Shown here piece by piece: positions 10,423 through 33,295 of a DNA stretch of 34,476 nucleotides (positions within the stretch are counted from its first letter, which is position 1; the number at the start of each line of letters is the position of its first letter). Source of the stretch: a virus (Duplodnaviria; Heunggongvirae; Uroviricota; Caudoviricetes); IMG/VR virus record IMGVR_UViG_2698536573_000006. One strand, written 5' to 3'. The notes beneath the pieces were generated by a model. It was not told the origin of the DNA, ran no database searches, and worked only from the letters and a program-made list of their open reading frames with translations. Made by a program: the position numbers and the translations under genes.

Positions 10423-10432
10423 GTACCTGTCC

Positions 10433-12342: not shown

Positions 12343-13389
12343 TCAGGATGTGGGCGGGGTGTCCAGCAGTGCGTAAGGGTTAAAGCGGATCACCTCTTCG
12401 CCAAGCCAGTCATTGATGTGCTTCATGGCCTCCATAACGGGCATCAGCTCGTTAATTGCATAAACCCGCGCGGCCTTCTCCACATCACCAAACGCACTTT
12501 TTTCGCCCGGCATCGCCCCCATCAGTTGCGGCGGAACGCGGTGCGCAGCCAGCACATCATCACGGGATGCCGCCTTAACATTCATGAACTCATCCTTTGC
12601 GGTGATCTGCTGGAACGGCAAAATTTGCACCCCCTCTTTGCCCCCGTTGGGCGCATGAATGAGCACGTTTTTAAATGCACCACCACCACGTGCACCCTGT
12701 AGCGTTTCCTTCAGGGAGTCCATGCTTTCGCGGTTTACCTGCGCTGCACCGATGTAGATGATGCACCCGGCGTGGGATCCATTGTCGTAGTACAGTTTTC
12801 TGAACATGTCCGCCGAATGAGACAGGCTGGCCGAGAGTAATGCGCCGAGATATTCCGGCATGCCGTAGATTTCCTGGTTAATGTCAGGATTCATCAGGTG
12901 GCACACTTTGCCAGGGCGAAACTGAAACGCGTCCTTGCCATCCTGCACATACCACCATGATTCAAGATCGCTTCCGCGTCGCATGTATTTCGCCAGGGCG
13001 TGCCGTAATTTAAGCGGTTCGCCGAGCATATTGCTCCGAAGCTCAAGGAATGCGTTACCGAACACAAACCAGTCCAGCGCCAGCGCCGAGAAATCCTGCC
13101 GGGAAAGCAGCGGGTGCGGGATGTAGCAACTGAGCAATACATTACGCTTAAAGTAAAGCGCAGACTGATGCCAGGACGTTTGCCGGGCAGCTCTTGCCAG
13201 ACCGTACCAGTCCACCGGGGTTTCATACCACCGCCCGTTATCAGCACAGTACATATTGTCCAGCAAATCATGCCCGGTCAGGCGATAAGGACCATCAAAT
13301 GTGAATGCACTGAGCGACGATTCTTTCCTGAGCGCATCAGCGAGATCAATGCGTGAACTCATGCGCACTTTTTTATTTTTTCTGCTCAT
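12343..13389 (-). CDS. Q: portal protein, P2 gpQ family
   Basis: 348 aa; position and orientation (divergent from O, downstream of P) and overall similarity to my recollection of P2 Q. Confidence 0.9.
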   Translation of the reverse strand: MSRKNKKVRMSSRIDLADALRKESSLSAFTFDGPYRLTGHDLLDNMYCADNGRWYETPVDWYGLARAARQTSWHQSALYFKRNVLLSCYIPHPLLSRQDFSALALDWFVFGNAFLELRSNMLGEPLKLRHALAKYMRRGSDLESWWYVQDGKDAFQFRPGKVCHLMNPDINQEIYGMPEYLGALLSASLSHSADMFRKLYYDNGSHAGCIIYIGAAQVNRESMDSLKETLQGARGGGAFKNVLIHAPNGGKEGVQILPFQQITAKDEFMNVKAASRDDVLAAHRVPPQLMGAMPGEKSAFGDVEKAARVYAINELMPVMEAMKHINDWLGEEVIRFNPYALLDTPPTS

Positions 13390-15140
13390 CAGAACTCCAT
13401 AACCGTGAAACGCTCGTTTTCTCCTTCGCCGCCAATCGGTTCGTTAATGACAGCAAGCATGGTTGCCCACGCAAGGTCGCCGTGGCTGATCCCCCTCGCG
13501 CGGTCCGTTTCGTATGTGATAAAGCCGCCCGGTGTTTTCACCTTACGCACGGCGTTAAAGGCCGCGACCAGCTCACGTTCGGCGCGATCGTATTCCCACC
13601 GCCCGGCACGCATTATTTGCAACATTTTCAGTACCAGCGACCGTTTTGATGACAGCGTGAAGGTGTACGGAATAGCAGCAGGGAAAAACCGTTTCACTAT
13701 CTGATAAACAGCCTCCCCGTTCCCGCCTGTCACATCAATGCCGATGTGTTCCACGTTGTAGCGACACGTGAACTCTTCAATGACTCTGGCCTGTTCTTCA
13801 AACTCCAGCCCCTGAACGCGTCGCGTCTCCACCGTTCGAAAACGGCCTCCATGAACAGCCGGAGGAACCACCACGGACACAGCGCCGCTGTCGCCGTTTC
13901 CACTGCTGCCGTTTGCGTCATACCCAATCCATACCGGACGATTCCCCATCGGGCGGGGAGCAAAAGGTTTCCAGTCTTTCCAGTCGTCGTATCCGTCAAC
14001 ACCGCAGCCAATCAGGATATTCAGGTTAAATGCCGATTCCCCTTCGCGGACAAACTCACACATATAGAGATTGCGGAACTCGTCTTCGGTGTTTTCATCA
14101 CGAATTTCGTCAATATCGGTGTGTTTCCAGCCGTGATTAACCACATCTTCCAGCGTGACAATTTGCCGCCACGTCCGGTCAGGGCAGATAAGCCCGTTAT
14201 GCAGCGTTTTCCAGTCCACAGAAAAACGCTGGCGTTTATGCGTGGTCTTTTTCTCGTTCCAGCGGTCGCCGTTCCAGTAGGCGTATGCCTCGTGCGTTTC
14301 GGTGGATGGCGTGGAGAAGTAGGTGCGCCGCAGTCCGCTGAGGGTTGCCATAGCGCCAGCCACCTTGCGCAGTTCAGCAAAGCGACTGACCCAGAAAAAT
14401 TCATCAAAATAAAAATTGCCCGTGTAGGACTGTGCCGTCGCAGCAGAAGTACCAAGAAAATGCAGCTCTGCGCCGTTGGAGAGGATGATTTTATCGCCCC
14501 CTTTCAGCTCCACATCAACTTCAGATGCAGCCTTCTGAATAATGCTTTTAAACTGGAACGCCTGACGACGCGACGCAGACAAAAAAATCTGGTTACGCTG
14601 GTAAGGTTGCGCCACATCGTCACGCAGCGCCATCAGCAGTGCTTCCTGTGCAAAATACCAGGTCGCTCCAATCTGTCGGGATTTCAGGATCATCCTGTTA
14701 CGTATCCCGGCTTCCCTGCAAAGGGTCAGGGAGTCAAACCAGCCCCGCTGATGCCACTCCAGCCTGCTGATGATTTTTTCCCGCAGTGCGGCAATCTGTT
14801 CCTGCGTGAAATGATTTTTGAGTTTTTTCGCCCGGCTTTTCTTTCCTGTGGCCGTCGCATCCGGCTGGCCATCATGCAGTTTTTTAAGCTGCCGGGTCAG
14901 CAGGTCTATTTCCTTAAAGTCACCGCCTGTTTTATTCTTTTTTTCAGTAAGCTGGATGAGGCGCGCATCGATGGACTGCGTGACACGCTGCACGGGTGGT
15001 GTTTCATCCCACTGGTCGCGTTTTTTCCACGCATAAATCGTGTTCGGGTTTATTCCCATCAGACGTGATATTTCTGCGGGCGGATAACCCTGCCAGTAAA
15101 GTTGCCGCGCACGCTGGCGCACAAAAGCGTCCTGAATCAT
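13389..15140 (-). CDS. P: terminase large (ATPase) subunit, P2 gpP family
   Basis: 583 aa; classic P2 P position upstream of Q on the same strand; its stop overlaps the Q start. Confidence 0.9.
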   Translation of the reverse strand: MIQDAFVRQRARQLYWQGYPPAEISRLMGINPNTIYAWKKRDQWDETPPVQRVTQSIDARLIQLTEKKNKTGGDFKEIDLLTRQLKKLHDGQPDATATGKKSRAKKLKNHFTQEQIAALREKIISRLEWHQRGWFDSLTLCREAGIRNRMILKSRQIGATWYFAQEALLMALRDDVAQPYQRNQIFLSASRRQAFQFKSIIQKAASEVDVELKGGDKIILSNGAELHFLGTSAATAQSYTGNFYFDEFFWVSRFAELRKVAGAMATLSGLRRTYFSTPSTETHEAYAYWNGDRWNEKKTTHKRQRFSVDWKTLHNGLICPDRTWRQIVTLEDVVNHGWKHTDIDEIRDENTEDEFRNLYMCEFVREGESAFNLNILIGCGVDGYDDWKDWKPFAPRPMGNRPVWIGYDANGSSGNGDSGAVSVVVPPAVHGGRFRTVETRRVQGLEFEEQARVIEEFTCRYNVEHIGIDVTGGNGEAVYQIVKRFFPAAIPYTFTLSSKRSLVLKMLQIMRAGRWEYDRAERELVAAFNAVRKVKTPGGFITYETDRARGISHGDLAWATMLAVINEPIGGEGENERFTVMEF

Positions 15141-15294
15141 TGCTCCCCCTGAGTAATTACAGGAAGATTACCCGCGCGCGAAACCGTTCTCCTTAACCCC
15201 CTGTTCTGGCCGTTTTCTTACAACAAAAGCCCTTTGTATCAGCCTGTTACGCTTTGCCATCATGACTGAAGAACCAGTCAGAGGGGCGAAAACT

Positions 15295-16131
15295 ATGACT
15301 AATGAAAAAAAGACATCCCGCAAAAAGTTTCGCGTGGCTGTCTCCGGTGTGACGGCAGACGGGCGCGAAATCAACGGCGACATGCTGAAAGCTGCCGCCA
15401 CCAGTTATAACCCGTCCGTTTATGGTGCACGTGTAAATATTGAGCACATCCTGTCACCACTCCCCGGTAGCGAGTTTTCCGCTATGGGCGATGTTGTGGG
15501 GTTGAGCACCGAAGACATAACCGATGGCCCGCTGGCAGGCCGCACGGCACTGTATGCCGAAATTGAGCCGACCGCTCGCATGATGTCCCTGCTTAACGAT
15601 GGTAAAAAAATTTACTCCAGTATTGAGCTGGAACCACAGTCAACCATCACGGGAGGCCCTTACCTGCGCGGGCTGGCAATGACCGACACCCCCGCCAGCC
15701 TGGGCACGGAACGTCTGGCCTTTGCGGCACAACAACGTATGCAACTGATGACATTCAACTGTCAGCAGGGAGACGTGGCGATGTTCACCGCCGCTATGGA
15801 GTCAGAACTTATCGAACTCACCGAACAACGTCAGGAAGAAGGCACCCAGTGGTTTAACCGCGTTATGGGGATTATTGGCCGTGGCCGCAAAGCGGATGAC
15901 GCCAGTTTCTCCCGTATTCAGGAAGCGGTGGAAGGTGTCGCAACGTCACAGGCCGACATTATCGACCGTTTTAATGCACTGGAAACCCGCCATCAGCAGG
16001 ACAGCCAGAAAATCACTTCGCTGACCACAGAGCTGACAACACTGAAGGAAAAGCTGCGCACGCAGGACGGCGATCCGCAGAACCGGTTCACCGCAACGGG
16101 CGCAGCCTCCGACCAGCTGGCTGACTTCTGA
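15295..16131 (+). CDS. O: capsid scaffolding protein, P2 gpO family
   Basis: ORF 15262..16131; start set at ATG 15295, preceded by GAGGGG; FRVAVSGVTADGREI resembles the P2 O N-terminus. Confidence 0.85.
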   Translation: MTNEKKTSRKKFRVAVSGVTADGREINGDMLKAAATSYNPSVYGARVNIEHILSPLPGSEFSAMGDVVGLSTEDITDGPLAGRTALYAEIEPTARMMSLLNDGKKIYSSIELEPQSTITGGPYLRGLAMTDTPASLGTERLAFAAQQRMQLMTFNCQQGDVAMFTAAMESELIELTEQRQEEGTQWFNRVMGIIGRGRKADDASFSRIQEAVEGVATSQADIIDRFNALETRHQQDSQKITSLTTELTTLKEKLRTQDGDPQNRFTATGAASDQLADF

Positions 16132-16154
16132 TAAGACAAAGGAGCAAATTTTTT

Positions 16155-17207
16155 ATGAATCTGGTGATGTCAGATAATGCCCGTAACAAGCTGGGCTGCT
16201 ACATGACGCGACAGGCGTCGATTAACAATATCCCGGTTTCTGGACTGGTATCGCGATTTACCGTGGAACCCTCGGTGCAGCAGCGTTTTGAAAACGCCTC
16301 AAAGGATAGCACCGAACTTACAAAAAAAATTAACGTGATCGGTGTGACCGACCAGAAAAGCGAAAAAGTCCTCCTGGACACCACCGGGCCGATTGCGCGC
16401 ACAAATACCAGTTATGACGGCACAGATCGCCGCAACCCGATTAACGCTGTCGACCTGAAGTCCCGTCAGTACCAGTGTGAGCAGGTGAACTACGACACGT
16501 TTATTTCGTATCCGCAGCTTGATGCCTGGGCGGCGCACAATGACTTCCAGACCCGCATCAGCGCACAGATTGCCCGACAGGTGGCGCTTGACCGCATCAT
16601 GATCGGCTTTAACGGCACGTCACACGCGGAAAAATCCAACTTCAGCACCAACAAGCTGCTTCAGGACGTTAACGTGGGGTGGCTGGAGCACATCAGAACC
16701 AATGCCAGCGCGCGCGTAATGAATGACGTGACGCTGACCTCCCGCAACATGGACAACACCGTGGCGCACGCGGGTAAGTATGCGAATGCTGATGCACTGG
16801 TTCAGGACGCACGCTCATCCCTGCTGGATGAATGGCACAAGGAAGCTGACGACCTCGTGGTGATTATGGGGCGCAACCTGTTTAACTCGCTGCGTCTGCC
16901 CGTGCTGAACAGCATCAGCGGCCAGAATCCCAATGCGGAATTACTCGCCGGGCAGCTCATCCTGTCATCGCGCACCATTGGCGGGCTGGGTGTGTTCCTT
17001 GCGCCGTTCTTCCCGGATGCAACGATGCTGATCACCTCGTTCAACAACCTGTCGATTTACTGGCAGAAAGGTTCAATGCGTCGTCTGATGAAAGACGAAC
17101 CGGAATACAACCGCATCGCCACCTACCAGTCCATCAATGACGCTTATGTCGTTGAAGACTATGGCAAGTGCGCGATGGTCACTGGCCTGAAGTTCGCCGA
17201 CAGCTAA
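16155..17207 (+). CDS. N: major capsid protein, P2 gpN family
   Basis: 350 aa; RFTVEPSVQQ, MIGFNGTS and YVVEDYG motifs align with my recollection of P2 N; AAGGAG Shine-Dalgarno. Confidence 0.9.
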   Translation: MNLVMSDNARNKLGCYMTRQASINNIPVSGLVSRFTVEPSVQQRFENASKDSTELTKKINVIGVTDQKSEKVLLDTTGPIARTNTSYDGTDRRNPINAVDLKSRQYQCEQVNYDTFISYPQLDAWAAHNDFQTRISAQIARQVALDRIMIGFNGTSHAEKSNFSTNKLLQDVNVGWLEHIRTNASARVMNDVTLTSRNMDNTVAHAGKYANADALVQDARSSLLDEWHKEADDLVVIMGRNLFNSLRLPVLNSISGQNPNAELLAGQLILSSRTIGGLGVFLAPFFPDATMLITSFNNLSIYWQKGSMRRLMKDEPEYNRIATYQSINDAYVVEDYGKCAMVTGLKFADS

Positions 17208-17252
17208 TCAACTCACGGCGGGCATCATGCCCGCCTGTAACGGAGAGAAAAA

Positions 17253-18053
17253 ATGATTACTCCTGCACAGCAACACTGGCAGAACGTGATGGCACAGCGC
17301 GCAGGCCAGGCGAATGAAGGCGTGGACCACGCCGCGCGTACCGCGCATGAAGAGGTGCTGTATCGTCTGCGTCTGGCACAGGCCCGGCTTAAGGGCGTAC
17401 AGGCCAGAAGCGCGAAAGCCGCCATCAAAAAAGAGTTGTTGCCGGACTTTTCCGGCTGGATTGAGGGAACGCTGGAGGCTGACGGCGGGCAGCAGGATGA
17501 AGTGATTGCCACGCTGATGGTGTGGGCGATTGACTGCGACGATCTTCCGCTTGCGCTGCGTATTGGTGCGTATGTGGTCCGTCACAACCTCATCATGCCG
17601 GATAACTTTGGCCGTACTGCTGCCACAGTGCTGACCGAAGAAATCTGCAACCCGGTACTGACGCAGGCCGGGACGGATGCCGACGCGGATTTGTCCGCCT
17701 TTATCGAACCACTGGATACCCTCCGGGAGATTGTCACCGACCAGGACATGCCGGACGAAGTGCGCGCCAAATTATGCAAGGCGTGCGCCTTTGCCCGTCG
17801 TGGTCTGAGTGATGCGGACAGCATGGCCCTGTCACTGAAGCTGCTGCGCGAAGCAATGCACCTGAACCCGAACGCAGGTGTGAAACGCGAGATTGCAACC
17901 CTTTCCCGCGCCCTGAAAAAAGCCGATTCCGCAGCCGCACCAGAAGACGCCAGCACACAGCAGACGCAGGACGAAAGCAGCAAAAGTAAAAAGACAACGC
18001 GGAAGCCTGCAACACGAAAAACCACCGCGACGCAGAAGGCGAAGCGCGGTTAA
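17253..18053 (+). CDS. M: terminase small/endonuclease subunit, P2 gpM family
   Basis: 266 aa at the gpM position, with a basic C-terminal tail. Confidence 0.85.
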   Translation: MITPAQQHWQNVMAQRAGQANEGVDHAARTAHEEVLYRLRLAQARLKGVQARSAKAAIKKELLPDFSGWIEGTLEADGGQQDEVIATLMVWAIDCDDLPLALRIGAYVVRHNLIMPDNFGRTAATVLTEEICNPVLTQAGTDADADLSAFIEPLDTLREIVTDQDMPDEVRAKLCKACAFARRGLSDADSMALSLKLLREAMHLNPNAGVKREIATLSRALKKADSAAAPEDASTQQTQDESSKSKKTTRKPATRKTTATQKAKRG

Positions 18054-18146
18054 CGACTGACCCCGTCAGCGGGCGGCGTGCGCGGTGTTCCGGTTTGACT
18101 CCGTGACCGTTTACACCGCTCACCCACCGCCCGATTTTTTTCAGGA

Positions 18147-18650
18147 GTGAACCCCATGAGTATGGTTGCCAGAACCAACCCCGGCCCCGCAGAGGACGAC
18201 ATCACCGATACCGATGATGGTGATACCCGTATTTCAGCGGGTGCATTCTGGCCGGATATTGTGCTGCGTGAGCTGCGTCTGGCGGTACGACTGCCGGGCC
18301 GTGTGACCACCTCCCGTCTGCTGCATACCGCCACCGGGGCTGTGGCACACGTTACCCGCGAGCTGGAAGCATGGCAGCAGGAACAGCAGGCGGCTGGCCA
18401 TCAGACGCTGGCCGATGTTCCGGCACCCGTAATTAACGGAGAAAGCGTCAATCTCTGGCACTGGCGCAATGCGGTTTACACCGCCACACGCGCCCTGATT
18501 CTGGAGCGTTACCGCGATGCGGACACAACGGACAAGGGCGACCGCCGGGCGGACGCACTGGATATACAGACATCGGATTTGTGGCGTGATGTGAGCTGGG
18601 CCATCTCTGACATTCTGTGCCGTCCGCGAATCTTTGCGGAGTTGTGCTGA
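18147..18650 (+). CDS. L: head completion/stabilisation protein, P2 gpL family
   Basis: 167 aa at the gpL position; AGGAGTG Shine-Dalgarno. Confidence 0.85.
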   Translation: MNPMSMVARTNPGPAEDDITDTDDGDTRISAGAFWPDIVLRELRLAVRLPGRVTTSRLLHTATGAVAHVTRELEAWQQEQQAAGHQTLADVPAPVINGESVNLWHWRNAVYTATRALILERYRDADTTDKGDRRADALDIQTSDLWRDVSWAISDILCRPRIFAELC

Positions 18651-18850
18651 TGAAAGTAAAGGCACTGGAAGGCGACACCGTGGATTCGCTCTGTTTCCGG
18701 TACTACGGCACGACGCAGGGCGTCACCGAAAAGGTGCTGGATGCCAACCCCGGACTCTGCCAGCAGGTATTTCTGGACGCCGGGCAGGACGTGGAGATGC
18801 CAGAGCCGGAGAAGAAGAAACGAGAAATGATTCAGTTGTGGGGGGAGTAG
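18650..18850 (+). CDS. X: tail protein X
   Basis: 66 aa starting at ATG 18650, which overlaps the L stop (ATGA); size and position match P2 X. Confidence 0.8.
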   Translation: MKVKALEGDTVDSLCFRYYGTTQGVTEKVLDANPGLCQQVFLDAGQDVEMPEPEKKKREMIQLWGE

Positions 18851-18852
18851 CA

Positions 18853-19176
18853 GTGAGCACCATTCAAACAGGGATCACAGAGCAGGTTATTGCGTGGCTC
18901 TTTGACCACCTGCCAACGGTGTATGCAGTAGGCGCGGCGGTCAGCATTTCCGCGCTGATGAGTCTTTATGACGGACGAACACTGGTTCAGACCGTAACGG
19001 GATCGCTGGCGTGCGGCGTTCTTGCCATGGCCGTGGCCGGGTCGTTGCGCTTCTTCGGGTTTCCTGAAGATGCCGTGACGTTTATCGGCGCATCAATCGG
19101 TTTTATGGGGGCAGAGAAAGCACGCGACAAGGTTATTGCGGCCTTTAATCGCAGGGTGAAGGAGAAGGACGAATGA
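18853..19176 (+). CDS. Y: holin (P2 gpY-like)
   Basis: About 107 aa from GTG 18853, with hydrophobic helices and a charged C-terminus; sits between X and the endolysin. Confidence 0.7.
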   Translation: MSTIQTGITEQVIAWLFDHLPTVYAVGAAVSISALMSLYDGRTLVQTVTGSLACGVLAMAVAGSLRFFGFPEDAVTFIGASIGFMGAEKARDKVIAAFNRRVKEKDE

Positions 19177-19565
19177 GCAACACATTTAAATTCAGCAGCC
19201 GGAGCGAAAAGAATTTGCAGGGCGTAAACCCTGATCTGGTGAAAGTGACCCGACGGGCACTGGAAATTTCGGAAGTGGATTTTGGTATCACCGAAGGGTT
19301 GCGCAGCCGTTACCGCCAGAAGCAACTTGTGGCCACAGGTAAGAGCCAGACCATGAACAGCCGCCACCTTACGGGGCATGCCGTGGATGTTGTGGCTTAT
19401 ATCGGCAGCCAGGTGTCATGGGAATGGCCGCTGTACGAAAAAATCGCAACCGCATTCAGACAGGCCAGCCGGGAACTGAATATTCCGGTGGAATGGGGCG
19501 GCGACTGGAAGACCCTGAAAGACGGACCGCATTTTCAGTTACCACACGGAGCCTATCCGGCATGA
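19173..19565 (+). CDS. endolysin, peptidase M15-type (L-Ala-D-Glu endopeptidase-like)
   Basis: 130 aa; SRHLTGHAVDV and WGGDWKTLKDGPHFQL are characteristic of zinc M15 peptidoglycan peptidases. Occupies the gpK slot, but P2 K is a lysozyme. Confidence 0.8.
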   Translation: MSNTFKFSSRSEKNLQGVNPDLVKVTRRALEISEVDFGITEGLRSRYRQKQLVATGKSQTMNSRHLTGHAVDVVAYIGSQVSWEWPLYEKIATAFRQASRELNIPVEWGGDWKTLKDGPHFQLPHGAYPA

Positions 19566-19969
19566 AGCTCTGGCCCACGCTTGGCGTCGCTTTCCTTCTG
19601 ATTGCCGGATGGGGAACATCCATGCGTCTGTCGTGGTCGCTGGGCCGGGAGAACGCCAGAAACGAAGCGCAGGCCAGCACCCTGAAAAGTACCGCCGACA
19701 CCCTGAATATCATCAGCGCCGGGGTACAGGATATGCAGCAGGTGCTGGCGCAACTCCGCGTGGAAAATCAGCAACGCAATCAGGACGGAGAGGCCAGACG
19801 TGAACAGCTACGCAACGATATTGCAAAAGATGAATGCGCCCACGCTTTGCCTGACGCTCGTTTTACTGACAGGCTGCGCAGGCACGCAGAACGCGCCACT
19901 GCCAGCGCCGTCAGTCCGGCTTATACCGCAGACGCTGACCATACCGGTAACGCCTCCCCCCTTCCCTGA
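19562..19969 (+). CDS. lysB: i-spanin (LysB/Rz-like)
   Basis: Starts at ATG 19562 within ORF 19418..19969; N-terminal TM helix followed by a coiled-coil region. Confidence 0.65.
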   Translation: MKLWPTLGVAFLLIAGWGTSMRLSWSLGRENARNEAQASTLKSTADTLNIISAGVQDMQQVLAQLRVENQQRNQDGEARREQLRNDIAKDECAHALPDARFTDRLRRHAERATASAVSPAYTADADHTGNASPLP

Positions 19970-20120
19970 CACTCCCACATGGGGAAATCTCGGTATATGG
20001 GGCGACCGCCTTCTGGATGCACTGGAAACCTGTAACGCGGATAAACGGGCCATTGAATTACTGGAACAGCGCAGGCTGCAACGACTGAACAACGAGGACA
20101 ACAACCATGCTGAAAACTGA
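19830..20120 (+). CDS. lysC: o-spanin (LysC/Rz1-like) lipoprotein overlapping lysB out of frame
   Basis: ORF 19800..20120 in an alternative frame inside and beyond lysB; lipobox LLTGC and a proline-rich segment. Start at 19800 or 19830. Confidence 0.5.
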   Translation: MNAPTLCLTLVLLTGCAGTQNAPLPAPSVRLIPQTLTIPVTPPPFPDTPTWGNLGIWGDRLLDALETCNADKRAIELLEQRRLQRLNNEDNNHAEN

Positions 20121-20574
20121 TTCCCTGCGTGAAGCCATGACCCGTTCATGCCGATGGTGTCAGGCTAACCCGGAAAAATTCACCATTTTCGTGGAGAGCG
20201 GCAACATTGAAACGACCGGAGAAACGCCCTCGTTTGTTTACCGCTATCAGATGGTGATGTTTGTCATGGATTACGCCGGGGAGCTGGACGACCTCACGCT
20301 GCCGCTACTGGCGTGGTTATCCGAAAATCAGCCACAGTTGTTGCTCAATCCGGAGCGTAATCAGGACATCAAATTTTCCGCCGTTATCAATGACGATGAC
20401 AGCGCCGATCTCCTGTTTACGCTCCCCTTGCGGGAACGCGTTCGCATCACGCGCAGCAGTCAGGGCACACCGCAGGCAGAACACCTGCCGGAGCCAAAAC
20501 CCCGCCTGCCATCTTCCGCAGGCGACTGGTCGCATGTATTCCAGGATGTGACGTGGGGTGAAAGCGATGGATAA
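20107..20574 (+). CDS. R: tail completion protein R
   Basis: 155 aa at the gpR position. Confidence 0.8.
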   Translation: MLKTDSLREAMTRSCRWCQANPEKFTIFVESGNIETTGETPSFVYRYQMVMFVMDYAGELDDLTLPLLAWLSENQPQLLLNPERNQDIKFSAVINDDDSADLLFTLPLRERVRITRSSQGTPQAEHLPEPKPRLPSSAGDWSHVFQDVTWGESDG

Positions 20575-21202
20575 GGCATTCACCCGCGTGGATGAAACCT
20601 TTGAGGCCATTCGCGACAGCCTGAATCAGCAGGCCATCAATAACATCGCCAGAAAGCTGGCACAGGATTTACGTCGCGCCCAGCAGGCGCGTATCCGGTC
20701 ACAGAAAGCGCCGGACGGGACCGCGTGGACACCACGCAGACGCCGCGTAACCCGGATACAGGAGCGCATTCGTTTTATCTGGAATAACGAAGCACGCACG
20801 CTGAAAAACTGGCATCACGACACGGGGAAATACGGGCGAACCATCACCGGGTGGGATGAGGATAAAAACAGCATCCGCACGTTTTACCGGGATGACATCG
20901 ACCGCTTTCTGGAAATACGCACCCGGCGCATCGACCAGGACAGCACCAGGCGCGTCCCCATGTTCGTAAAACTGCGCACCGCCCGCTACCTGAAAGCCCG
21001 TGCAGATGCTTCCGGTGTGACGGTGGGTTACAGCGGCGTGGCCGCACGTATTGCACGCGTTCATCAGTTCGGTGAGCGCGATCAGGTTGCGCCGGGCATT
21101 TTCACCGATTACCCGGTACGTGAGCTGCTGGGTATCAGCCAGGCAGATGAGCGCCTGATTTATAACACGGTGCTGGGCCGGATTGCGGAGGCTGTACAGT
21201 GA
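20558..21202 (+). CDS. S: tail completion / virion morphogenesis protein S
   Basis: 214 aa at the gpS position (HQFGERD motif). Start could be GTG 20558 or ATG 20567. Confidence 0.8.
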   Translation: MKAMDKAFTRVDETFEAIRDSLNQQAINNIARKLAQDLRRAQQARIRSQKAPDGTAWTPRRRRVTRIQERIRFIWNNEARTLKNWHHDTGKYGRTITGWDEDKNSIRTFYRDDIDRFLEIRTRRIDQDSTRRVPMFVKLRTARYLKARADASGVTVGYSGVAARIARVHQFGERDQVAPGIFTDYPVRELLGISQADERLIYNTVLGRIAEAVQ

Positions 21203-21330
21203 GCGCAGAACTCATGCGACTGCTGAGCAACATCATCCGCACCGGGATCATCTCTGAAGTTGATGAGAAGTCCTGGTGCGTGCGCGTTCGCAGCGGCGAA
21301 CTGGAAACAGGCTGGTTAACACCATGGTGA
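21199..21330 (+). pseudogene. V: remnant of baseplate spike gene V (first ~43 codons only)
   Basis: Translation [43 protein letters not shown] matches the P2 V N-terminus (LRNMIRTGIIVETD...RCRVQTGG...DWLQW) then stops; the rest of V is absent. Confidence 0.6.
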
Positions 21331-23015
21331 TGGCCACAGTGGATTACGTGGATAACAAACTGAAAGAGCATGAACAGTCACGACGTCACCCGGATGCCTC
21401 GCTGACCGCAAAAGGCTTTGTTCAACTCAGTAGCGCCACTAACAGCGTGTCTGAAACACAAGCTGCAACGCCGAAAGCAGTAAAGGCCGCGTATGACCTT
21501 GCTAACGGGAAATATACTGCGCAGGATGCCAGCACAACGCGAAAAGGCCTTGTCCAGCTCAGTAGCGCCACCAACAGCGATTCTGAAACGCTGGCGGCAA
21601 CACCAAAGGCGGTAAAGGCAGCATATGACCTTGCTAACGGGAAATATACCGCACAGGACGCTACCACAGCGCGAAAAGGTCTTATCCAGCTCAGCAGTGC
21701 GACTAACAGCACTTCCGAGTCACTGGCGGCAACGCCAAAAGCCGTTAAGGCCGCGTATGAGCTGGCTAACGGGAAATACACCGCACAGGATGCAACGACA
21801 GCACAGAAAGGGATAGTTCAGCTTAGCAACGCGACCAACAGCACATCTGAAACGCTGGCGGCAACGCCAAAGGCGGTAAAGGCAGCATATGACCTTGCTA
21901 ACGGGAAATATACCGCACAGGACGCTACCACAGCGCGAAAAGGTCTTGTCCAGCTCAGTAGTGCAACCAACAGCACGTCTGAAACGCTTGCCGCGACCCC
22001 GAAAGCGGTTAAAGCTGCTAATGACAATGCAAACGGGCGTGTGCCCTCTGGACGTAAGGTTAATGGCAAACCACTGACCAATGATGTCAATGTTACATCA
22101 CAGGATATTTTTAACGGTCAGAGTATTAATATTGGTGCAAACCAGAATCTGGATAATTACAAAACGCCGGGGCTGTACCATCAACCCCTGAATGCCTATA
22201 CAAGTGCAGCGCTGAAATACCCAGAGAATCTTGCCGGTACACTGGTTGTGCTTAAAAATGCCGGGATAACACAGATTTACTATGTGTATAACACATCCAG
22301 AAGCTATACCCGCAGCCAGTACTCAACGGGTGACTGGACAGCATGGACGCCGCAGGATTCATTTCCTGTAGGTGCGGCGATTCCGTGGCCTTCTGATTCA
22401 GTGCCTACAGGCTATGCCGTTATGCAGGGGCAGACTTTTGATAAAACAACCTATCCCCTGCTTGCAGCAGCTTATCCCTCTGGTGTACTCCCCGATATGC
22501 GTGGCTGGACAATCAAGGGCAAACCCGCCAGTGGTCGGGACGTATTGTCTCTGGAACAGGATGGCATTAAATCGCACACCCACAGCGCCAGCGCATCCAA
22601 TACGGATTTGGGTACGAAAACCACATCTTCGTTTGATTACGGTACTAAATCAACGAATAACACAGGTGCACATACCCACAATGTATCTGGTACTGCAAAT
22701 AGTGCTGGCGCACATACTCATACCGTGCCATTAAGGAGACCAAACAGTGGCGGTATGAATTTCGACTGGCTGGATGGTGCATCAAGTGGCACGGTGGTAG
22801 GGAATGGAACTGTGCCTTCTTCTGGCGCACATACCCACTCAGTATCAGGCACCGCTACAAGTGCTGGGGCACATGCACACACTGTTGGTATTGGCGCTCA
22901 TACGCACTCTGTTGCGATTGGTTCACATGGACATACCATCACCGTTAACGCTGCTGGTAACGCGGAAAACACCGTTAAAAACATCGCATTTAATTATATT
23001 GTGAGGCTTGCATAA
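21324..23015 (+). CDS. H: tail fibre protein (P2 gpH-like), lacking the baseplate-proximal N-terminal domain
   Basis: From ATG 21324: [32 protein letters not shown] corresponds to an internal segment of P2 H ([33 protein letters not shown]). Followed by tandem repeats and a C-terminal GAHTH-repeat tip. Confidence 0.8.
21411..22040 (+). repeat. tandem 132-bp coding repeats (about 4.7 copies) inside the tail fibre gene
   Basis: Repeated 44-aa unit [44 protein letters not shown]; the nucleotide copies are near-identical. Confidence 0.8.
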
Positions 23016-23632
23016 TGGCATTCAGAATGAGTGAACAATCACGCACTGTAAAAATTTATAACCTGCTGGCCGGAACTAATGAGTTTATTGGTGAAGGTGA
23101 CGCATATATTCCACCTCATACAGGGCTGCCAGCTAATTCTACAGATATCGCCCCACCGGAAATTCCTGCTGGCTTTGTGGCAGTTTTTAACAGTGAAAAT
23201 GAATCGTGGAATATTGTTGAAGACCATCGTGGTAAAACGGTCTATGACGTGGCATCGGGGGACGCGTTGTTTATTTCTGAACCCGGACCGCTACCAGAGA
23301 ATGTCACCTGGTTGTCGCCAGCAGGGGAATATCAGAAGTGGGACGGCGTATCCTGGGTGAAGGATGAGGAAGCAGAAAAACTGTTTCGGATACGGGAAGC
23401 GGAAGAGAAAAAGGCAAGGTTGATCCAGGAGGCAACAGATAACATCGCAATCCTGCAGGATGCAGTTAATCTTGAAATAGCAACAAACGAGGAAAATTCA
23501 CAACTGGATTCCTGGAGAAAATACAGAGTATTAGTGAGTAGAATTGACACCAGTACAGCTCCGGATATCGTATGGCCAGAGCTGATGAATCAGGGTTATG
23601 TGCGGGAGGACGAGCAGATAACTTCAGACTGA
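23015..23632 (+). CDS. G: tail fibre assembly protein (gpG-like)
   Basis: 205 aa; its ATG overlaps the H stop; N-terminal region typical of Tfa chaperones. Confidence 0.75.
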
Positions 23633-24159
23633 AATTTAGTGATGAATGTTGAATCATCAGGAATATCATGCAATACCAATGCATGAGCACCTATTGTGAC
23701 ATTGTTTCCTATACGCACTTTGCCACCAAGAATGGTGGCATTACAACCAATGGTCACATTATGTCCTATAACAATATCCATATCATTAAAATCACCACGT
23801 AGCCCAATAGTTACCCCCGGTTTTATTGAACAATTTTCACCGATTGTTACTTTGTGACCGATAACAACACTGTTGAGATAAGAAATATCAAAACCTTTCC
23901 CTATATTTACAGTTAAAGGGACTGTTACATTATATTTATCAAGAATGAAACGTTCTATTTTCCCCGCAATCTTCCGACAGTATCCGCCTTTATCAAAAAG
24001 GTATTTGGCTATGCGCCACCAAAATAAATAACGAAGTCTTCTATGTTTTATTGCGCGAACAATTGCCTTTCGCCAGGAGAAAGGACGCTCGCTACCGATT
24101 ACTTCATAGTGAATACAGTCTTTAAGTTCATTAATATTCATATCTCTATTATTCAGCAT
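23596..24159 (-). CDS. hexapeptide-repeat (left-handed beta-helix) acetyltransferase, cargo at the Z/fun position
   Basis: 187 aa with repeated [LIV]GxxxxIG hexapeptide units ([45 protein letters not shown]); AT-rich; convergent with G and overlapping its 3' end. Confidence 0.7.
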
Positions 24160-24329
24160 AAGATAATCATGTGACCAATTATTGTAATAATTTTAATGGT
24201 ATGTTTCTACTGGCTATCCAGCGTGTCTGATACCCAGTAACAAATCGTTAACACAGGTGCAATCAAATGGTGAGTGTTAAGACTGGCCACTTATTACCAG
24301 GTATGAGGGTATGAGTGGCCAGCATTAAA

Positions 24330-24824
24330 TCAGAACAGCCCTTTAACTGAACTGGCCGCGCTGTTAAGGGATGATGTCACTTTATCTTTGAAGCCGGACA
24401 GAATATCGCTGAACGATGAGGATTGCAGGCGCTCCCGCAAATCCTCATCACAGCGTTCAAGGGTCAGTGAAAATTCTATCTTTTTCGCCTTACCGTAGCG
24501 ATCAAACTCGGAACGGGTCGTATTCGTTTCGGTCAGGACATACATGCCGTAAATCTGCCCGACGCCATCAATAAGAGGCCAGGGGCGTCCTGTATACGCC
24601 TGCGTGGTCAGCAGCGACAGCGACACTTCGCCACCTGTAATTTCAGGATAAAGCACACCAGAAAGAACGATGCGATCATCACCTGCACCGATATACTGCC
24701 AGCTTGCTGAACGGTTAACGCGTTCATTTTTCACATGCCGCCAGCTTTTGTTTTGCTGTAACTGCTGATGCGGCAGCGTGCGCAGCTCAAAAACAAACAT
24801 GCCGTAGATCATCATCATGGCCAT
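24330..24824 (-). CDS. U: tail protein U
   Basis: 164 aa; MMMIYGMFVFELRT...YPEITGG...PLIDGVGQIYGMYV matches P2 U (MMMVLGLFVF...YPELTGG...PLIDGSGHIYGMFV). Confidence 0.85.
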   Translation of the reverse strand: MAMMMIYGMFVFELRTLPHQQLQQNKSWRHVKNERVNRSASWQYIGAGDDRIVLSGVLYPEITGGEVSLSLLTTQAYTGRPWPLIDGVGQIYGMYVLTETNTTRSEFDRYGKAKKIEFSLTLERCDEDLRERLQSSSFSDILSGFKDKVTSSLNSAASSVKGLF

Positions 24825-24830
24825 GACTCC

Positions 24831-27674
24831 TCAATCTTTATCGTAAAAACTGCCACGCCCGGCATGGGCACGCCGTTCCATTTCTGCCCTGACCATTTCA
24901 CCGACCAGTTTCGCCAGTTCGCGGGGATTCTGCGTAACAACGTTATGCAGATGAACATGAATTTCACCACCAAATCCGGAGGCAACAGGCTCCCGGTTAC
25001 GGGAAGTTGCAGGAACTGATGCCACTGGCGATCGTATGGCCTCCGCCACCGGGTGAGAGCTGGCCGCAACAACAGGGACCAGCGCCGGAGGCAGCGGAGC
25101 CGGAACCACGGGGGTGATATTAATTGCGGGGGCAGGCTTACTGACCTGTGTAATCTTCCGCTCCTGCCACTCCCCACGAACAGCAAGTGCGCGGGGCAGG
25201 TTCTTAAAGACAATATCGCCGGGGCCAATGCGTTTTTTCGTCTCATCAACCAGCTTACCTGTGTTATCAGCAATTTTGCTGAGTCTGCGTAGCGTCCCGG
25301 TATTGCTGTCTGTGAGCGGTTTGTTGTCTTTGGGTTTATCACCTCCGGTGCCATTGCCATTTTCCACAGGCTTCGGCGGATTGATTTTCGCCAGGTCCCC
25401 CTGAAGTAAGGCTACCTTGTCCTGAAGAATGGCCGCACGCTGTGCGTCTTCGATTTTCTTGCGCGCCCTTTCCGCTTCATCCGGAAGGACGCCAAGTTTT
25501 TCAAGTATCCACGCCAGCGTATCCAGTAGCATTTTTGCAGGTGTCAGAACAAGTTGTAACGCACCGCCAAGAACGTTACCGAATATCTCGCCAGCACTGG
25601 TACATTTATCCAGCGTTTCCTTGCTGGACTCCATCGGTGACAGTAGCGATTTAAACCAGTTAAACACCTGGCTGATCCCGCTTCCGATTGCGTCAAAAAC
25701 AGGACCAAACCGTTCAAAAGTTTCGCGCAACGGGGTCAGCCTTTCCATAATCCCGCTGAACACCCCGGCAAAAAATGCCCTGATGGGATCCCAGTATTTC
25801 CAGATAAGAACGGCAGCTCCGGCAAGCGCAGCCACGATAAGACCAACCGGACTGAACAGCGCCCCGATAGCACCTCCCAGCAAAGAAACGGAACCCGTCA
25901 CCATTCCCCATAGTGCTGGCAGGAGCCTGACAGCATTCATTGATCCGGTCAGGAGGGAAAAACCAAGACGCAGTTTTGCCAGCGGGCCAGCAAGCACACC
26001 AAGAGCAAGCGACAACGAGCCTACGGTTGCAGTCACTGCCAGCAGCGCACCGCCTGCAATCAGTAGCTGGCGCGTCAGTACAGGATGGGCCTGCGCCAGT
26101 ACCGTCACCTTTGAGACCACCCGTGTTAGCCACTGCGTGACAGAACGCAGCGGACCGTCAACCAGATCACTGATGCGAATACGAAGACCTTCCCATGCGC
26201 TGTCGAGATTTTTCAGGTCGCCATCAAGGTTGTCGGCCATAACCTTTGCCGTGCGTTCAGCCTCACCGCGTGCGCCCTCAAGTTCTTTTCTCAGTTTGGG
26301 TAAGGAACCGTCACCCGCCGCATCAACGAGTGCCATAAACGATGTGAAAGCCTCTTCCCCGGCGATATCCTTAAAGAAGGATACCCGGTCAACTTCCCCG
26401 TATTTGCGGGTAGCTTTATAAAGGTCAGCCAGCAGATCTTCCATCGGGCGCATTTTGCCCCCGGCATCCGAAACGGACACGCCCAGCTCTTTCAGAGCTT
26501 CTGCCGCCGCCTTTGGCGGTGATGCCAGACGAGCCAGGCTGGCACGCATTGCCGTCCCGGCATCACTCCCTCTGATGCCCATATTCGCCAGCACGCCCGC
26601 CATCGCTGCGGTCTGCTCCAGCGATATTCCCAGCTTACCCGCCACCGGACCTGCATATTTCATGGTTTCGCCCAGTGCGCGAAGGTCAGTGTTGGTACGG
26701 GTAAACGCTGCGGTGAGTGTGTCACCGACCCGGTCCATCTGGTCAGCAGAAAGGCCGAACTGCGTCAGGATATTTGAGCCAATATCTGCCGTCTCGCCGA
26801 GATCCATACCGCCAGCCGTTGCCATGCTCAGCACGCCGGGAAGCGCAGCCTGAATGGCCTGCGGAGTGAAGCCAGCCATTGCAAGAAATGCCTGTCCACT
26901 GGCGGCATCGCCTGCGGTGAACTGCGTTTCAGAGCCAAGTTTTAACGCCTGCTCACGCAGCGCCTTAAACTGCGGGCTGTTCTGGTCGATTCGCGTCAGT
27001 GCCTGAACGCGGGACATCTCTTTGCCGAACCCGATCGCAGGCTGCAAAAAACGCCCGGCAGCATAGCCGCCCGCCGCTGCCGCACCAATTGCCAGTGCAC
27101 CACCTGTTTTCAGTTTTCCCGCTGTTTCCTGCGCGCGCGAATACCGCTCACGCGCCCGCGTTACACGCGCAAGCGCCTGCCGTTCGCGTTCAAGCTGATT
27201 GTTGTACTGTTCGGTGCGTCTGATGGCCTGCTGGATGGTGTTATCGCTGCCTGTCAGGGAAATGCCGTGGCGTTTCAGCTCTCCGCCAAGCTCCCGCATT
27301 TTCTGAATTTCCCGCGTGCGCGATTCATTCAGGCGTTCAAGCCGGGTGCTTAACTGCTGCATCAGCTTTTGTTGTTTTTCGCTGAGCACTGTACCCGTGC
27401 GTTGTAACTGATTAAGGGCGTTAAGCTGGCGTCGTGCTTTCACGATACCCGCATCCGCTTTACTGACAGCGTCGCGGGCGCGCTCAAATGAACGCGCCTG
27501 ACGCTCGAGATTTTTGATCGCCCCCTGCGTTCGCTGGATGGAGTCACCAAACTGCCCCATCAGGCGGCGGGCGTTTTCGGCAGGCTGGGTCAGCCTGTCA
27601 ACGGCGCTGAAAGCGACCCGGATATCAAGAGTCTTCATTGTCTGCATTCCCGCTGCGAAGTGCCGCCCGCTCAC
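24831..27674 (-). CDS. T: tail tape measure protein T
   Basis: 947 aa with a long coiled-coil N-terminal half and Gly/Ala-rich hydrophobic segments; lies between E/E' and U. Confidence 0.85.
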   Translation of the reverse strand: MSGRHFAAGMQTMKTLDIRVAFSAVDRLTQPAENARRLMGQFGDSIQRTQGAIKNLERQARSFERARDAVSKADAGIVKARRQLNALNQLQRTGTVLSEKQQKLMQQLSTRLERLNESRTREIQKMRELGGELKRHGISLTGSDNTIQQAIRRTEQYNNQLERERQALARVTRARERYSRAQETAGKLKTGGALAIGAAAAGGYAAGRFLQPAIGFGKEMSRVQALTRIDQNSPQFKALREQALKLGSETQFTAGDAASGQAFLAMAGFTPQAIQAALPGVLSMATAGGMDLGETADIGSNILTQFGLSADQMDRVGDTLTAAFTRTNTDLRALGETMKYAGPVAGKLGISLEQTAAMAGVLANMGIRGSDAGTAMRASLARLASPPKAAAEALKELGVSVSDAGGKMRPMEDLLADLYKATRKYGEVDRVSFFKDIAGEEAFTSFMALVDAAGDGSLPKLRKELEGARGEAERTAKVMADNLDGDLKNLDSAWEGLRIRISDLVDGPLRSVTQWLTRVVSKVTVLAQAHPVLTRQLLIAGGALLAVTATVGSLSLALGVLAGPLAKLRLGFSLLTGSMNAVRLLPALWGMVTGSVSLLGGAIGALFSPVGLIVAALAGAAVLIWKYWDPIRAFFAGVFSGIMERLTPLRETFERFGPVFDAIGSGISQVFNWFKSLLSPMESSKETLDKCTSAGEIFGNVLGGALQLVLTPAKMLLDTLAWILEKLGVLPDEAERARKKIEDAQRAAILQDKVALLQGDLAKINPPKPVENGNGTGGDKPKDNKPLTDSNTGTLRRLSKIADNTGKLVDETKKRIGPGDIVFKNLPRALAVRGEWQERKITQVSKPAPAINITPVVPAPLPPALVPVVAASSHPVAEAIRSPVASVPATSRNREPVASGFGGEIHVHLHNVVTQNPRELAKLVGEMVRAEMERRAHAGRGSFYDKD

Positions 27675-28154
27675 GCCAGCTAACCACTTCGCCGGGCGTC
27701 ATCATGAAGATTTCGGCGGGCGACCAGTTAAAAATAACGGCAATATCTGCCACAAAGTCTTCTATGTGCTCAAAGCACACAACCGTGATCAGGCTTCCGT
27801 CGCCTGTTCGTTCTTCCCGCCAGAGTCCGCACCGCTCAAAAAATTTACGGCAACCACACATAACTGAATAAAGTCACGGGATGCCATTTTTTTGATCGTC
27901 ACTTCATCCAGTCGCGGTGATGTCACTCGTGACAGCAGCGTAAACATGGATTCCGCTTTCAGATTCAGCACATCAGACAGCGACAAATCTCGCAGAGATC
28001 CAGCCTGCTCAATAGCCCCGGTGATCTCCACATACGTGATTTTTTCGCCGCCTCGCTCAATTGGTTGGGTAAGTTTTACGCCACGCTCACTGGTTTCTTT
28101 CACAGTGTCAGCAACTACCGTGTTTTCGGTATCGATGTTTTTCGTCTCTTTCAT
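27625..28154 (-). CDS. E+E' tail chaperone fusion made by a -1 programmed frameshift
   Basis: The -1 frame relative to E is open from the slip site to 27625, overlapping the start of T, as in P2 E/E'. Confidence 0.6.
27789..28154 (-). CDS. E: tail assembly chaperone E
   Basis: 121-aa ORF directly downstream of FII and upstream of T, containing the TTTTTTG slip site near its 3' end. Confidence 0.7.
   Translation of the reverse strand: MKETKNIDTENTVVADTVKETSERGVKLTQPIERGGEKITYVEITGAIEQAGSLRDLSLSDVLNLKAESMFTLLSRVTSPRLDEVTIKKMASRDFIQLCVVAVNFLSGADSGGKNEQATEA
27837..27843 (-). other. slippery heptamer T_TTT_TTG for the E/E' -1 frameshift
   Basis: Minus-strand ttttttg (top strand caaaaaa at 27837-27843) sits in the E zero frame as aaT TTT TTG, the same heptamer P2 uses. 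Confidence 0.55.
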
Positions 28155-28208
28155 CAGGAAACTCCTTTCAGTCAGAGGCGACGCACTGCGCCGCCTGCAT
28201 ATTACTTA

Positions 28209-28721
28209 TCAGCCAAGCCCAAGCGCGGAACGGATGCGATCGGGCACAATGTCCTTGCCGTCCTTCCGGTAAATGAAGTTCAGCAGGTCAATCTCCCACA
28301 ACGGACGATCGTTAACACTCAGCTTGTAGTAGGTGTTTTTAATGGCGTAAGTGTGTGATGTGGCTTCGCCCTGTTTGGCTTCCCCCATATCAATTTCCGT
28401 CACGCGTCCGCGCATTTCGACTTCATACAGGTCGCTTTCTGCATCGGTGTAGTATTCACCCGCAAAACGCAGTAGCGTGCCGTCAATCGTGCCGCCATAC
28501 TTAAGGAACAGCTCACGAACTGCGCCCCCCATGACAAAGCTCGCATCAAGCGCGGAGTCGTCCAGACCGAGATCAATACTTACCGCACCCATCATGCCAC
28601 CACCCCGGTAGCTGTCGGTTTTGCGCGTCAGTTTAGGCAGGGTGACGGACGTCACCTTACCCACTTCGTTTTCACCATCCACAAACAGCGTAAAAAAGCG
28701 AAGATGTTTTGGTACAGCCAT
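28209..28721 (-). CDS. FII: tail tube protein FII
   Basis: 170 aa immediately downstream of the sheath gene on the same strand. Confidence 0.85.
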   Translation of the reverse strand: MAVPKHLRFFTLFVDGENEVGKVTSVTLPKLTRKTDSYRGGGMMGAVSIDLGLDDSALDASFVMGGAVRELFLKYGGTIDGTLLRFAGEYYTDAESDLYEVEMRGRVTEIDMGEAKQGEATSHTYAIKNTYYKLSVNDRPLWEIDLLNFIYRKDGKDIVPDRIRSALGLG

Positions 28722-29905
28722 CAGGCACCTCCCAGCACCGCAAATGCGGGACCAAAGAATTCATCAGTAAACGACTGGTAAAGCTCCATGTCTTCCAGCG
28801 GAGGAACGGGCGTATATTTGTAGCGAATACGCACACGCCCCTGACGTAAATCCGTGGTGCTGTTATCCACCACGTCATACCAGCACGACGCCCCAATCAG
28901 TTTCCCGGCAGTAACCAGTGAATCCAGTTTTGCCCTGATGGCACTGATAACATCCTTCACGTTCGCAGGCGTCAGTGGACTATCGATGGTTTCAAACTGC
29001 GCTTCCGCAATTGAATCAGCCAGCACCTGTGCGGTTCGGGTATACACCTCAAAGATGTAGGCGTTCGTTTCCGGTGTGCGGTTGCCCCAGAAGCGGAACC
29101 CGTTGCGACGAATAATGGTCGTGATTTCTTTGTTGTTGAGGCTGTTGGCATCACTGTCTTCGGCCTGCAACGACCAGAACACATGCCTGGACATCCCCAG
29201 CACATTTTTAACCGGAACGTTGGACAGCGATTTGTGCCAGCCCTGCTCATGGTCAATGTACGCACGAAGGCCGCACGCATAGGCAGGCGCGGGGAACGTT
29301 TCGTTTTTGCCACTTTTCGGGTTGTAGGCGATGAAGTCCGGCCATAAGAGCATCACCTCACGTTCGTTGAATTTCTGGCGGTAGGTAATCGCCTCAGCCA
29401 TCGTGTTACAGCCGTGACATGAGGCATACACAAACGCGCGCAGTTTACCCGCAATCACGCACAGGGATTTTGTTACCGCCTCCGTGTCCAGCTCCGGCGC
29501 GGCCAGAATACGCGGACGGTATCCGATGCTTTCATCCTGCTCTGCAACAAGCAGCGCATACATCCCCGTATAGCTGCCGTCAGATTCAGAACCACCGATA
29601 ACCAGTTGATCCTGCGTTTTTCCGTCTTCTTCTTTGTGTTCAGCCACGCGAACGACGATCACCTTTGTACTCACCTGGTCTGCGATGGCCTTAAGCGCAC
29701 GATAAAGCGTCCCCGTTGTCCCGCATTTTCCCAGCACGTCATTGACGCGGGTCAGCAGTGTGGGCTTGTTCAGCGGGAACAGCTTCGCGTCCGCATCATC
29801 CGCCGTTGCCACGATACCGATAACGCTGGAATCAACATCGTTAATCGCTGTTACCAGGTCGGTATTTTCCGTAACACGGGCACCATGAAAACGAGTTTCA
29901 CTCAT
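28721..29905 (-). CDS. FI: tail sheath protein FI
   Basis: 394 aa; KLRAF, WPDF, DHEQGWHKSLSNV, IRRNGFRFWGNRT and YTRTAQV align with my recollection of P2 FI. Confidence 0.9.
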   Translation of the reverse strand: MSETRFHGARVTENTDLVTAINDVDSSVIGIVATADDADAKLFPLNKPTLLTRVNDVLGKCGTTGTLYRALKAIADQVSTKVIVVRVAEHKEEDGKTQDQLVIGGSESDGSYTGMYALLVAEQDESIGYRPRILAAPELDTEAVTKSLCVIAGKLRAFVYASCHGCNTMAEAITYRQKFNEREVMLLWPDFIAYNPKSGKNETFPAPAYACGLRAYIDHEQGWHKSLSNVPVKNVLGMSRHVFWSLQAEDSDANSLNNKEITTIIRRNGFRFWGNRTPETNAYIFEVYTRTAQVLADSIAEAQFETIDSPLTPANVKDVISAIRAKLDSLVTAGKLIGASCWYDVVDNSTTDLRQGRVRIRYKYTPVPPLEDMELYQSFTDEFFGPAFAVLGGA

Positions 29906-30062
29906 AGCTTCAGCCCCTTGTATCCGTTAAATGATTCGGCAACAATCATCACCCACCACGCGCGTAATCTCACCCCTGCGCCGTTCTCTCGCCACGGCGA
30001 CAACAAAAAGCAGTAACCCCCTCCGCACGCACATGCGACCATGCCGCACAGGGAGGGAGCAG

Positions 30063-31172
30063 ATGACCGACACCACCATGCAATTGCTCAGTCAGGGCAC
30101 AGACCCCGTAAAAATGCCGGATTTTGATATTCTCGCGGAGGGTAAAACGCTGTCAGGCGTGGCAGAGCGCCTGATGAGCCTGTCACTGACCGACAACCGG
30201 GGATTTGAGGCGGACCAGCTCACCATCACGCTGGATGATGCGGATGGTCAGTTGCAGCTACCGCCACGGGGCGCGCGCCTGACGGTTCTCATTGGCTGGA
30301 AGGGAGAACCGCTGACAGAAAAAGGCACTTACATTGTTGATGAAATCGCTCACGAAGGACCGCCGGACAGGCTGACTGTTTCAGCCAGAAGCGCAGATTT
30401 TCGGGATGAATTTAACGTTAAACGTGAGGTGTCCTGGCATGATGTGACCGTTGAGCGTGTGGTATCCGCCATCGCTCATCGGTATGGTCTGAAACCGCAA
30501 ATCAGCGAAATGCTGATGGATATCGAAATCGACCACGCCGACCAGACCGAAGAAAGCGACATGTCCTTCCTTACGCGCATGGCGGAAATGCTGGGTGCAA
30601 TCACCACGGTAAAAAGCGGCAATCTGTTATTCATCATGCCAGGTGGTGGCGTGAACGCACAGGGCCAGCCGTTGCCCTCGTTCGCCATTACACGCAGCAG
30701 CGGCGATCGCCATCAGTTCCGCATTGCTGACCGCGAGGCGTATACGGGGGTACGCGCCTACTGGCTTGATCTTAATTACGGGAAAAAGAAAAAAGTCAGC
30801 GTGAAACGCCGTAAACCGCCAAAACCCAAAAAGGAGAAAAGCAGCAGCCGTGAAGGTGATTATATGGAAGGCGCGGAAGGCAATGTGTTTGTGTTACGCA
30901 AGACTTATCAGAACGAGCAGGCAGCAAGACGCGCAGCGGCGGCAAAGTGGCAGCAACTACAACGCGGAGCCGCATCATTCTCCATCACGCTGGCGCGTGG
31001 ACGTGCAGAACTCTACCCCGAAATGCATGGCACGTTAACAGGATTTAAAAGCGAGATTGATAATCAGGACTGGATTATTGCAAAAGCCGGGCACACCATT
31101 GATAACAGCGGCTTTACCACGCAGCTTGAGCTTGAGGCAAAAATCCCGGAATGGATAGCGGAAACAGAGTGA
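30063..31172 (+). CDS. D: tail protein D (late control gene D family)
   Basis: ORF 29931..31172; start at ATG 30063 after GGGAGGGA. DNRGFEADQLT, SARSADFR, NSGFTTQLELE and a KR-rich insert match P2 D. Confidence 0.9.
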   Translation: MTDTTMQLLSQGTDPVKMPDFDILAEGKTLSGVAERLMSLSLTDNRGFEADQLTITLDDADGQLQLPPRGARLTVLIGWKGEPLTEKGTYIVDEIAHEGPPDRLTVSARSADFRDEFNVKREVSWHDVTVERVVSAIAHRYGLKPQISEMLMDIEIDHADQTEESDMSFLTRMAEMLGAITTVKSGNLLFIMPGGGVNAQGQPLPSFAITRSSGDRHQFRIADREAYTGVRAYWLDLNYGKKKKVSVKRRKPPKPKKEKSSSREGDYMEGAEGNVFVLRKTYQNEQAARRAAAAKWQQLQRGAASFSITLARGRAELYPEMHGTLTGFKSEIDNQDWIIAKAGHTIDNSGFTTQLELEAKIPEWIAETE

Positions 31173-31214
31173 GCAACTTAGAATAGCGGCAGCACCACGT
31201 TAAGGGAGGTAGCT

Positions 31215-32316: not shown

Positions 32317-32320
32317 CAAA

Positions 32321-33231: not shown

Positions 33232-33247
33232 GCCACAATCACAGATA

Positions 33248-33275: not shown

Positions 33276-33295
33276 GTTATCTATAACTCGAAAAT

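Follow-up and report, generated by a model that had tools for sequence, protein, structure and literature searches.

In the late region of the prophage studied here, the frame of the baseplate gene V breaks off early and the next open frame begins inside the tail fibre gene H. This raises the question of whether the genes between them have really been lost, and what such a loss would mean for the ability of the prophage to form particles. The stretch of DNA analysed (the window, 34,476 bp) was found at 100% identity in NZ_CP024275.1, the closed chromosome of E. coli O6:H16 strain M9682-C1, by megablast against 5,426 complete E. coli genomes, and the prophage site is adjoining flk. In strain 67-1 (NZ_CP035826.1) this prophage occupies the identical site, with the same integrase and flk on either side, and in that copy V (188 aa), W, J, I, H (710 aa) and tfa are all intact. 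The features around the joint are the following.

20558..21202, plus strand: gpS-like tail completion/virion morphogenesis gene, full length, 98% identical to PhiR44_2 gpS

21199..21330, plus strand: remnant of the baseplate spike gene V (ORF list, PGAP, tblastn, comparison with 67-1)

21317..21318, no strand: deletion junction (base-by-base comparison with strain 67-1, blastn)

21318..23015, plus strand: 5'-truncated tail fibre gene H, codons 146-710 of 710 (ORF list, PGAP, tblastn, Pfam)

23015..23632, plus strand: tail fibre assembly gene (tfa/gpG analogue), intact, 205/205 identical to strain 67-1 (Caudo_TAP)

The ORF of the V remnant is 43 codons long, and its GTG start at 21199 overlaps the stop of the gpS-like gene. 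A preliminary description of this DNA matched the frame, with its stop at 21328-21330, to the N-terminus of P2 V, and the match is real: the remnant aligns with residues 9-50 of P2 gpV (46% identity), 97.5% of its first 40 residues are identical in gpV of phage PhiR44_2, and from ATG 21214 all 35 of 35 residues are identical to the intact V of strain 67-1. The same description let V be cut after about 43 codons. An ORF of that length exists, but authentic V sequence ends at 21318 and makes up only 40 codons counted from GTG 21199, or 35 counted from ATG 21214. The last three codons, T-P-W, and the TGA are H DNA read out of frame; the V and H frames differ and the deletion is a multiple of three, so translation of V passes into H in the wrong frame and ends right after these codons. 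The Pfam domains of intact V are the OB domain Phage_base_V (9-76), the spike trimer domain Phage_spike (113-165) and Apex (166-188). Codons 36-188 (PGAP numbering) are lost, which leaves about half or less of the OB domain and nothing of the spike and Apex domains.

On the other side of the joint, the H frame is open from 21276 to 23015 with in-frame ATGs at 21324 and 21330. The ORF from ATG 21324 was previously read as an internal segment of P2 H, and it is indeed in the H frame, 84% identical to P2 gpH residues 144-251. Codons 146-710 encode the same residues as the intact H of strain 67-1 (710 aa; 100% identity) and are open to the native stop. In intact H, Pfam finds Phage_tail_fib (PF12571) at residues 6-153, five Phage_fiber_2 repeats and a Collar domain. 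The lost codons 1-145 correspond almost exactly to the N-terminal PF12571 domain, the only domain that the remnant lacks, and the five repeats and the Collar are kept. The earlier statement that the remaining fibre and Tfa genes are intact is therefore right for tfa and for the receptor-binding part of H, but not for H as a gene, which is 5'-truncated. When the proteins of strain 67-1 were compared with the window by tblastn, V 1-35, H 146-710 and G 1-205 were recovered, each at 100%. The breakage of both genes is already known: RefSeq marks them as partial pseudogenes, with PGAP giving 'phage baseplate assembly protein V, incomplete, missing C-terminus' at 21214-21318 and 'tail fiber protein, incomplete, missing N-terminus' at 21429-23015. 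The Phage_fiber_2 unit of about 132 bp (44 aa) occurs five times in tandem at 21400-22100, plus strand, and the copies have a mutual DNA identity of about 82%.

The breakpoint was located by nucleotide alignment to strain 67-1 and lies at 21317/21318. A base-by-base walk together with blastn showed that window 500-21318 is colinear with positions 1-20819 of the 67-1 segment (5 substitutions), and window 21317-34476 with positions 23488-36647 (2 substitutions). The two prophages thus differ by 5 + 2 = 7 substitutions over about 34 kb, 99.98% identity at the same chromosomal site, and by one gap of exactly 2,670 bp (about 20820-23489 of the 67-1 segment), which is their sole structural difference. 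M9682-C1 is thus without V codons 36-188 and H codons 1-145, and W, J and I are gone altogether. The two parents have TA (2 nt) in common at the junction: the left one reads ...GGTTA and continues with CGCTGG, the right one reads ...GGATA and continues with ACACCATGG, and the junction itself is GGCTGGT[TA]ACACCATGG. Both flanks are colinear with strain 67-1, with no extra bases and no nearby mismatch, as in a pair of pseudogenes left by a deletion.

A microhomology of at least 2 nt is expected at 16% of random V x H junctions. No 9-mer or longer is common to the two breakpoints within +/-200 nt, no direct repeat or recombinase site that could serve a homology-driven or site-specific deletion was found at them beyond these 2 nt, and the annotation of the prophage contains neither an invertase nor a resolvase gene. 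Since the breakpoints share so little, the deletion is non-homologous (illegitimate), and neither recombination between repeats nor a collapse of repeats in the assembler fits. Repeat-mediated collapse or slippage at the junction was rejected on the same ground, the breakpoints being without repeats. End joining, or replication slippage at negligible homology, is the probable mechanism.

It is conceivable that the joint was made during assembly, 2.67 kb having been dropped by a collapse or a misjoin from a genome whose baseplate module is intact. The five repeats of about 132 bp in H can trouble assemblers, but the breakpoints lie outside them and have only 2 nt in common, so that there is nothing to collapse across, and the repeat region downstream of the junction is identical to strain 67-1 in copy number and in every base. 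The junction is seen in one complete genome only, but this genome is a closed chromosome, and the exact remnant products are recorded elsewhere, the 38-aa V remnant from NCBI and from a Logan assembly, and the 563-aa H remnant on two contigs. These records give modest, assembly-independent support for the junction, the Logan contig possibly deriving from the same strain. We consider an assembly error very improbable, and collapse across repeats, which the preliminary description named as the danger, finds nothing to act on here.

W, J and I are lost whole. Neither the strain 67-1 nor the P2 proteins found a tblastn match for them in the 34,476-bp window (E <= 1e-3), so no homologues elsewhere in it replace the missing genes. 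According to the preliminary description, W, J and I are missing together with most of V and the N-terminal H domain, and the 2,670-bp gap relative to the intact 67-1 prophage, tblastn and Pfam all agree with this. To look for a helper in the rest of the chromosome, we used chimeric blastn queries with a portal/terminase anchor that kept M9682-C1 among the top matches. The anchor joined to the W-J genes of strain 67-1 matched two places in the M9682-C1 chromosome, but so did the anchor alone, and an anchor shortened by 10 nt joined to the P2 W-J genes matched only one. The second place vanishes with the 10-nt shorter anchor and is therefore a marginal anchor match, not W-J DNA. At the sensitivity of blastn (about 65% DNA identity), no P88-type or P2-type W-J DNA was detected elsewhere in the M9682-C1 chromosome. 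A resident prophage too divergent for blastn (under about 65% DNA identity), or a superinfecting phage of the P2 family, might still complement the missing genes.

The prophage had been compared with P2. It does belong to the P2 family (Peduoviridae), but by its sequence it is a P88-like Xuanwuvirus and not P2 itself. High DNA identity extends over most of the structural region: phage 500465-2 covers 84% of window 12300-31500 at 96.5% identity, PhiR44_2 has the same coverage at 96.4%, and P88 and Xuanwuvirus P884B11 each cover 49% at 95.3-95.5%. The late gene set of the group is present (Q P, O N M L X, lysis, R S, FI FII E E' T U D ogr), and Pfam finds the P2 families Phage_cap_P2, P2_Phage_GpR, Phage_P2_GpU and Phage_GPD in the window. 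The gene order, with FI-FII-E-T-U on the minus strand and D-ogr on the plus strand, is that of PhiR44_2, 500465-2 and the intact 67-1 prophage. An intact, viable member of the group has a complete V-W-J-I set and a full-length H, whereas here there is only V 1-35 and H 146-710. The likeness to P2, which belongs to another genus, lies in the V-W-J-I-H-G operon, where the genes are homologous and their order is unchanged. In contrast to P2, S and V abut without the P2 orf30 and pV region, the FI-U block lies on the other strand, and differences from P2 H and G are seen in the fibre tip and in tfa.

The other late genes were compared with PhiR44_2, and Q, P, O, N, M, L, X, holin, endolysin, R, S, U, T, E, E', FII, FI, D and ogr were all of full length, with identities of 80-100%. 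Among the late genes, the baseplate deletion is the only lesion found; for the early region the comparison was with strain 67-1 and at the DNA level only. Two further candidate lesions were rejected. An inversion of the minus-strand FI-FII-E-T-U block can be dismissed, as the free phage PhiR44_2 and the intact 67-1 prophage share this layout. A truncated gpD, of which PGAP calls the last 801 nt, can also be dismissed: the ORF at 30063-31172 (plus strand, 369 aa) is full length and 98.9% identical to PhiR44_2 gpD. On the opposite strand, at about 30319-30411, PGAP also has a short 'hypothetical' gene marked as a partial pseudogene, and the short gpD call looks like an annotation artefact.

Taken together, we are highly confident that a single, recent, non-homologous deletion of 2,670 bp in a P88-like prophage joined V to H and removed the baseplate genes, so that the prophage should form no infectious particles of its own. 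The gene anatomy and the gene absence are read directly from the DNA, and the breakpoint is known from assemblies. The near identity to the 67-1 prophage suggests that the event was recent, whether in nature or while the isolate was passaged in the laboratory. One illegitimate deletion joined V codon 35/36 to H codon 145/146, taking with it the rest of V, the wedge genes W, J and I, and the N-terminal domain by which H is anchored to the baseplate. V ends three codons past the junction, and H is left as a 5'-truncated frame with the intact tfa behind it.

In P2, gpV, W, J and I make up the baseplate (PMC4604203), growth of a V amber mutant fails on a non-suppressor host (10.1101/2023.02.25.529910), and fibres of this type anchor to the baseplate via their N-terminal domain (PMC11762384). 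Because the baseplate consists of these four proteins and V is essential, the M9682-C1 prophage should make no infectious particles by itself. It should still be able to replicate, to produce heads along with the sheath and tube proteins, and to cause lysis, but it would fail to nucleate tails, and neither tail assembly nor plaques would be expected. The suspicion that the prophage is defective is thereby made probable, by analogy with the known essentiality of V and the four-protein baseplate of P2. Prophage-prediction tools will score this element as near complete, though infectious particles are not expected from it.

The junction is confined to one of the 5,426 complete E. coli genomes (megablast), M9682-C1 being the sole genome to cover window 20500-22000 contiguously. 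More than 3,600 other genomes match this query partially, and in the best 30 of about 1,160 records whose best match has at least 95% identity the matching ends at window 21315-21318. A 35-mer spanning the junction was absent from the IMG/VR viral contigs.

At least 22 contigs from draft genomes of other E. coli, found via the same protein cluster, carry a different V-H lesion. In it, V codons 1 to about 67 are connected through 82 bp of gene I to H from position 23867 of the 67-1 segment, in the third repeat. The result is an in-frame ORF of 537 aa, at 8001-9614 in each of the four contigs L006-L009, which NCBI names 'baseplate assembly protein V'. These copies also carry P/O and M-L-X deletions and an inverted holin fragment. 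As the breakpoints differ, the lesions in M9682-C1 and in L006-L009 are independent events. In NZ_CP080233.1 (1830436-1834555) and NZ_CP172217.1 (1445823-1449720), portal/terminase lies within a few hundred bases of baseplate J/I, an arrangement which implies that other large internal deletions have probably occurred in P2-family prophages.

The remnant could also have been kept for a function. The lesion would then 'ground' the prophage, which keeps its lysis, cargo and fibre genes, and the fibre, re-initiated at UGAUG, would be made together with Tfa as a free receptor-binding trimer, serving for example in receptor masking or as a recombination donor. The H ATG at 21330 is in frame and overlaps the V-remnant stop TGA 21328-21330 by one base, all repeat and collar domains are kept and tfa is intact, but neither this ATG nor the one at 21324 has a recognisable Shine-Dalgarno on sequence inspection, and a scan for promoters and terminators gave no site close to the junction. 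The H remnant lies in the late transcript, where the UGAUG overlap could, speculatively, permit re-initiation. N-terminally truncated fibres of the P2 type can still bind cells, as is reported for R pyocins (PMC6363177). The allele occurs in 1 of 5,426 complete genomes, which gives no sign of spread or selection. The second, independent V-H lesion, with its in-frame 537-aa V::H ORF in at least 22 contigs of other E. coli, might point to such a function, but its breakpoints are different and it sits in a copy riddled with deletions, as neutral decay predicts. We regard a selected function as extremely improbable.

A broader version, that V-H lesions are a recurrently favoured way of disarming P88-like prophages, with the fibre C-terminus and Tfa made as a soluble receptor-binding protein, is likewise very unlikely; if it were true, the host, or phages that recombine with the prophage, would profit from this soluble product. 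A putative role as donor of the fibre/tfa module in recombination, which had been suggested earlier, is plausible.

The V-H junction is ordinary, strain-specific prophage decay, already annotated. The loss of essential genes by deletion in grounded or defective prophages of E. coli has been reviewed (PMC6379469, which also includes strain M9682-C1 in its survey of the Qin prophage), and in line with this, internal deletions are a common fate of the P88-like prophage family. As in other grounded or cryptic E. coli prophages, the element is integrated, essential morphogenesis genes are deleted and other modules are kept. M9682-C1 represents a very early stage with one lesion and all other late genes intact, whereas the copies in L006-L009 have multiple deletions and an inversion. 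The deletion tells nothing new on mechanism. As a single lesion in an otherwise intact element, with an isogenic undamaged copy for comparison, it shows cleanly how prophage domestication begins in nature.

It was also possible to observe several genes that lie outside the late functions. Between tfa and gpU, on the minus strand at 23596-24159, there is a hexapeptide-repeat acetyltransferase gene (PGAP: serine acetyltransferase), whose 3' end overlaps tfa by 37 nt. It has the position of P2 fun(Z) and may be a candidate lysogenic-conversion gene. A block of three genes (269, 114 and 459 aa; 9285-11908, minus strand) is found between the replication gene A and the portal gene Q, at the position of P2 tin/old; it is conserved in strain 67-1 and partly in contigs L006 and L009. 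The block gave no Pfam match and no PADLOC match, and could be candidate uncharacterised cargo, possibly anti-phage. The early region also has a gene for an SPFH/Band 7 protein (4619-5449, plus strand), and directly after ogr there is a Hok/Gef toxin gene (about 31666-31806, plus strand); both are present in strain 67-1 too.
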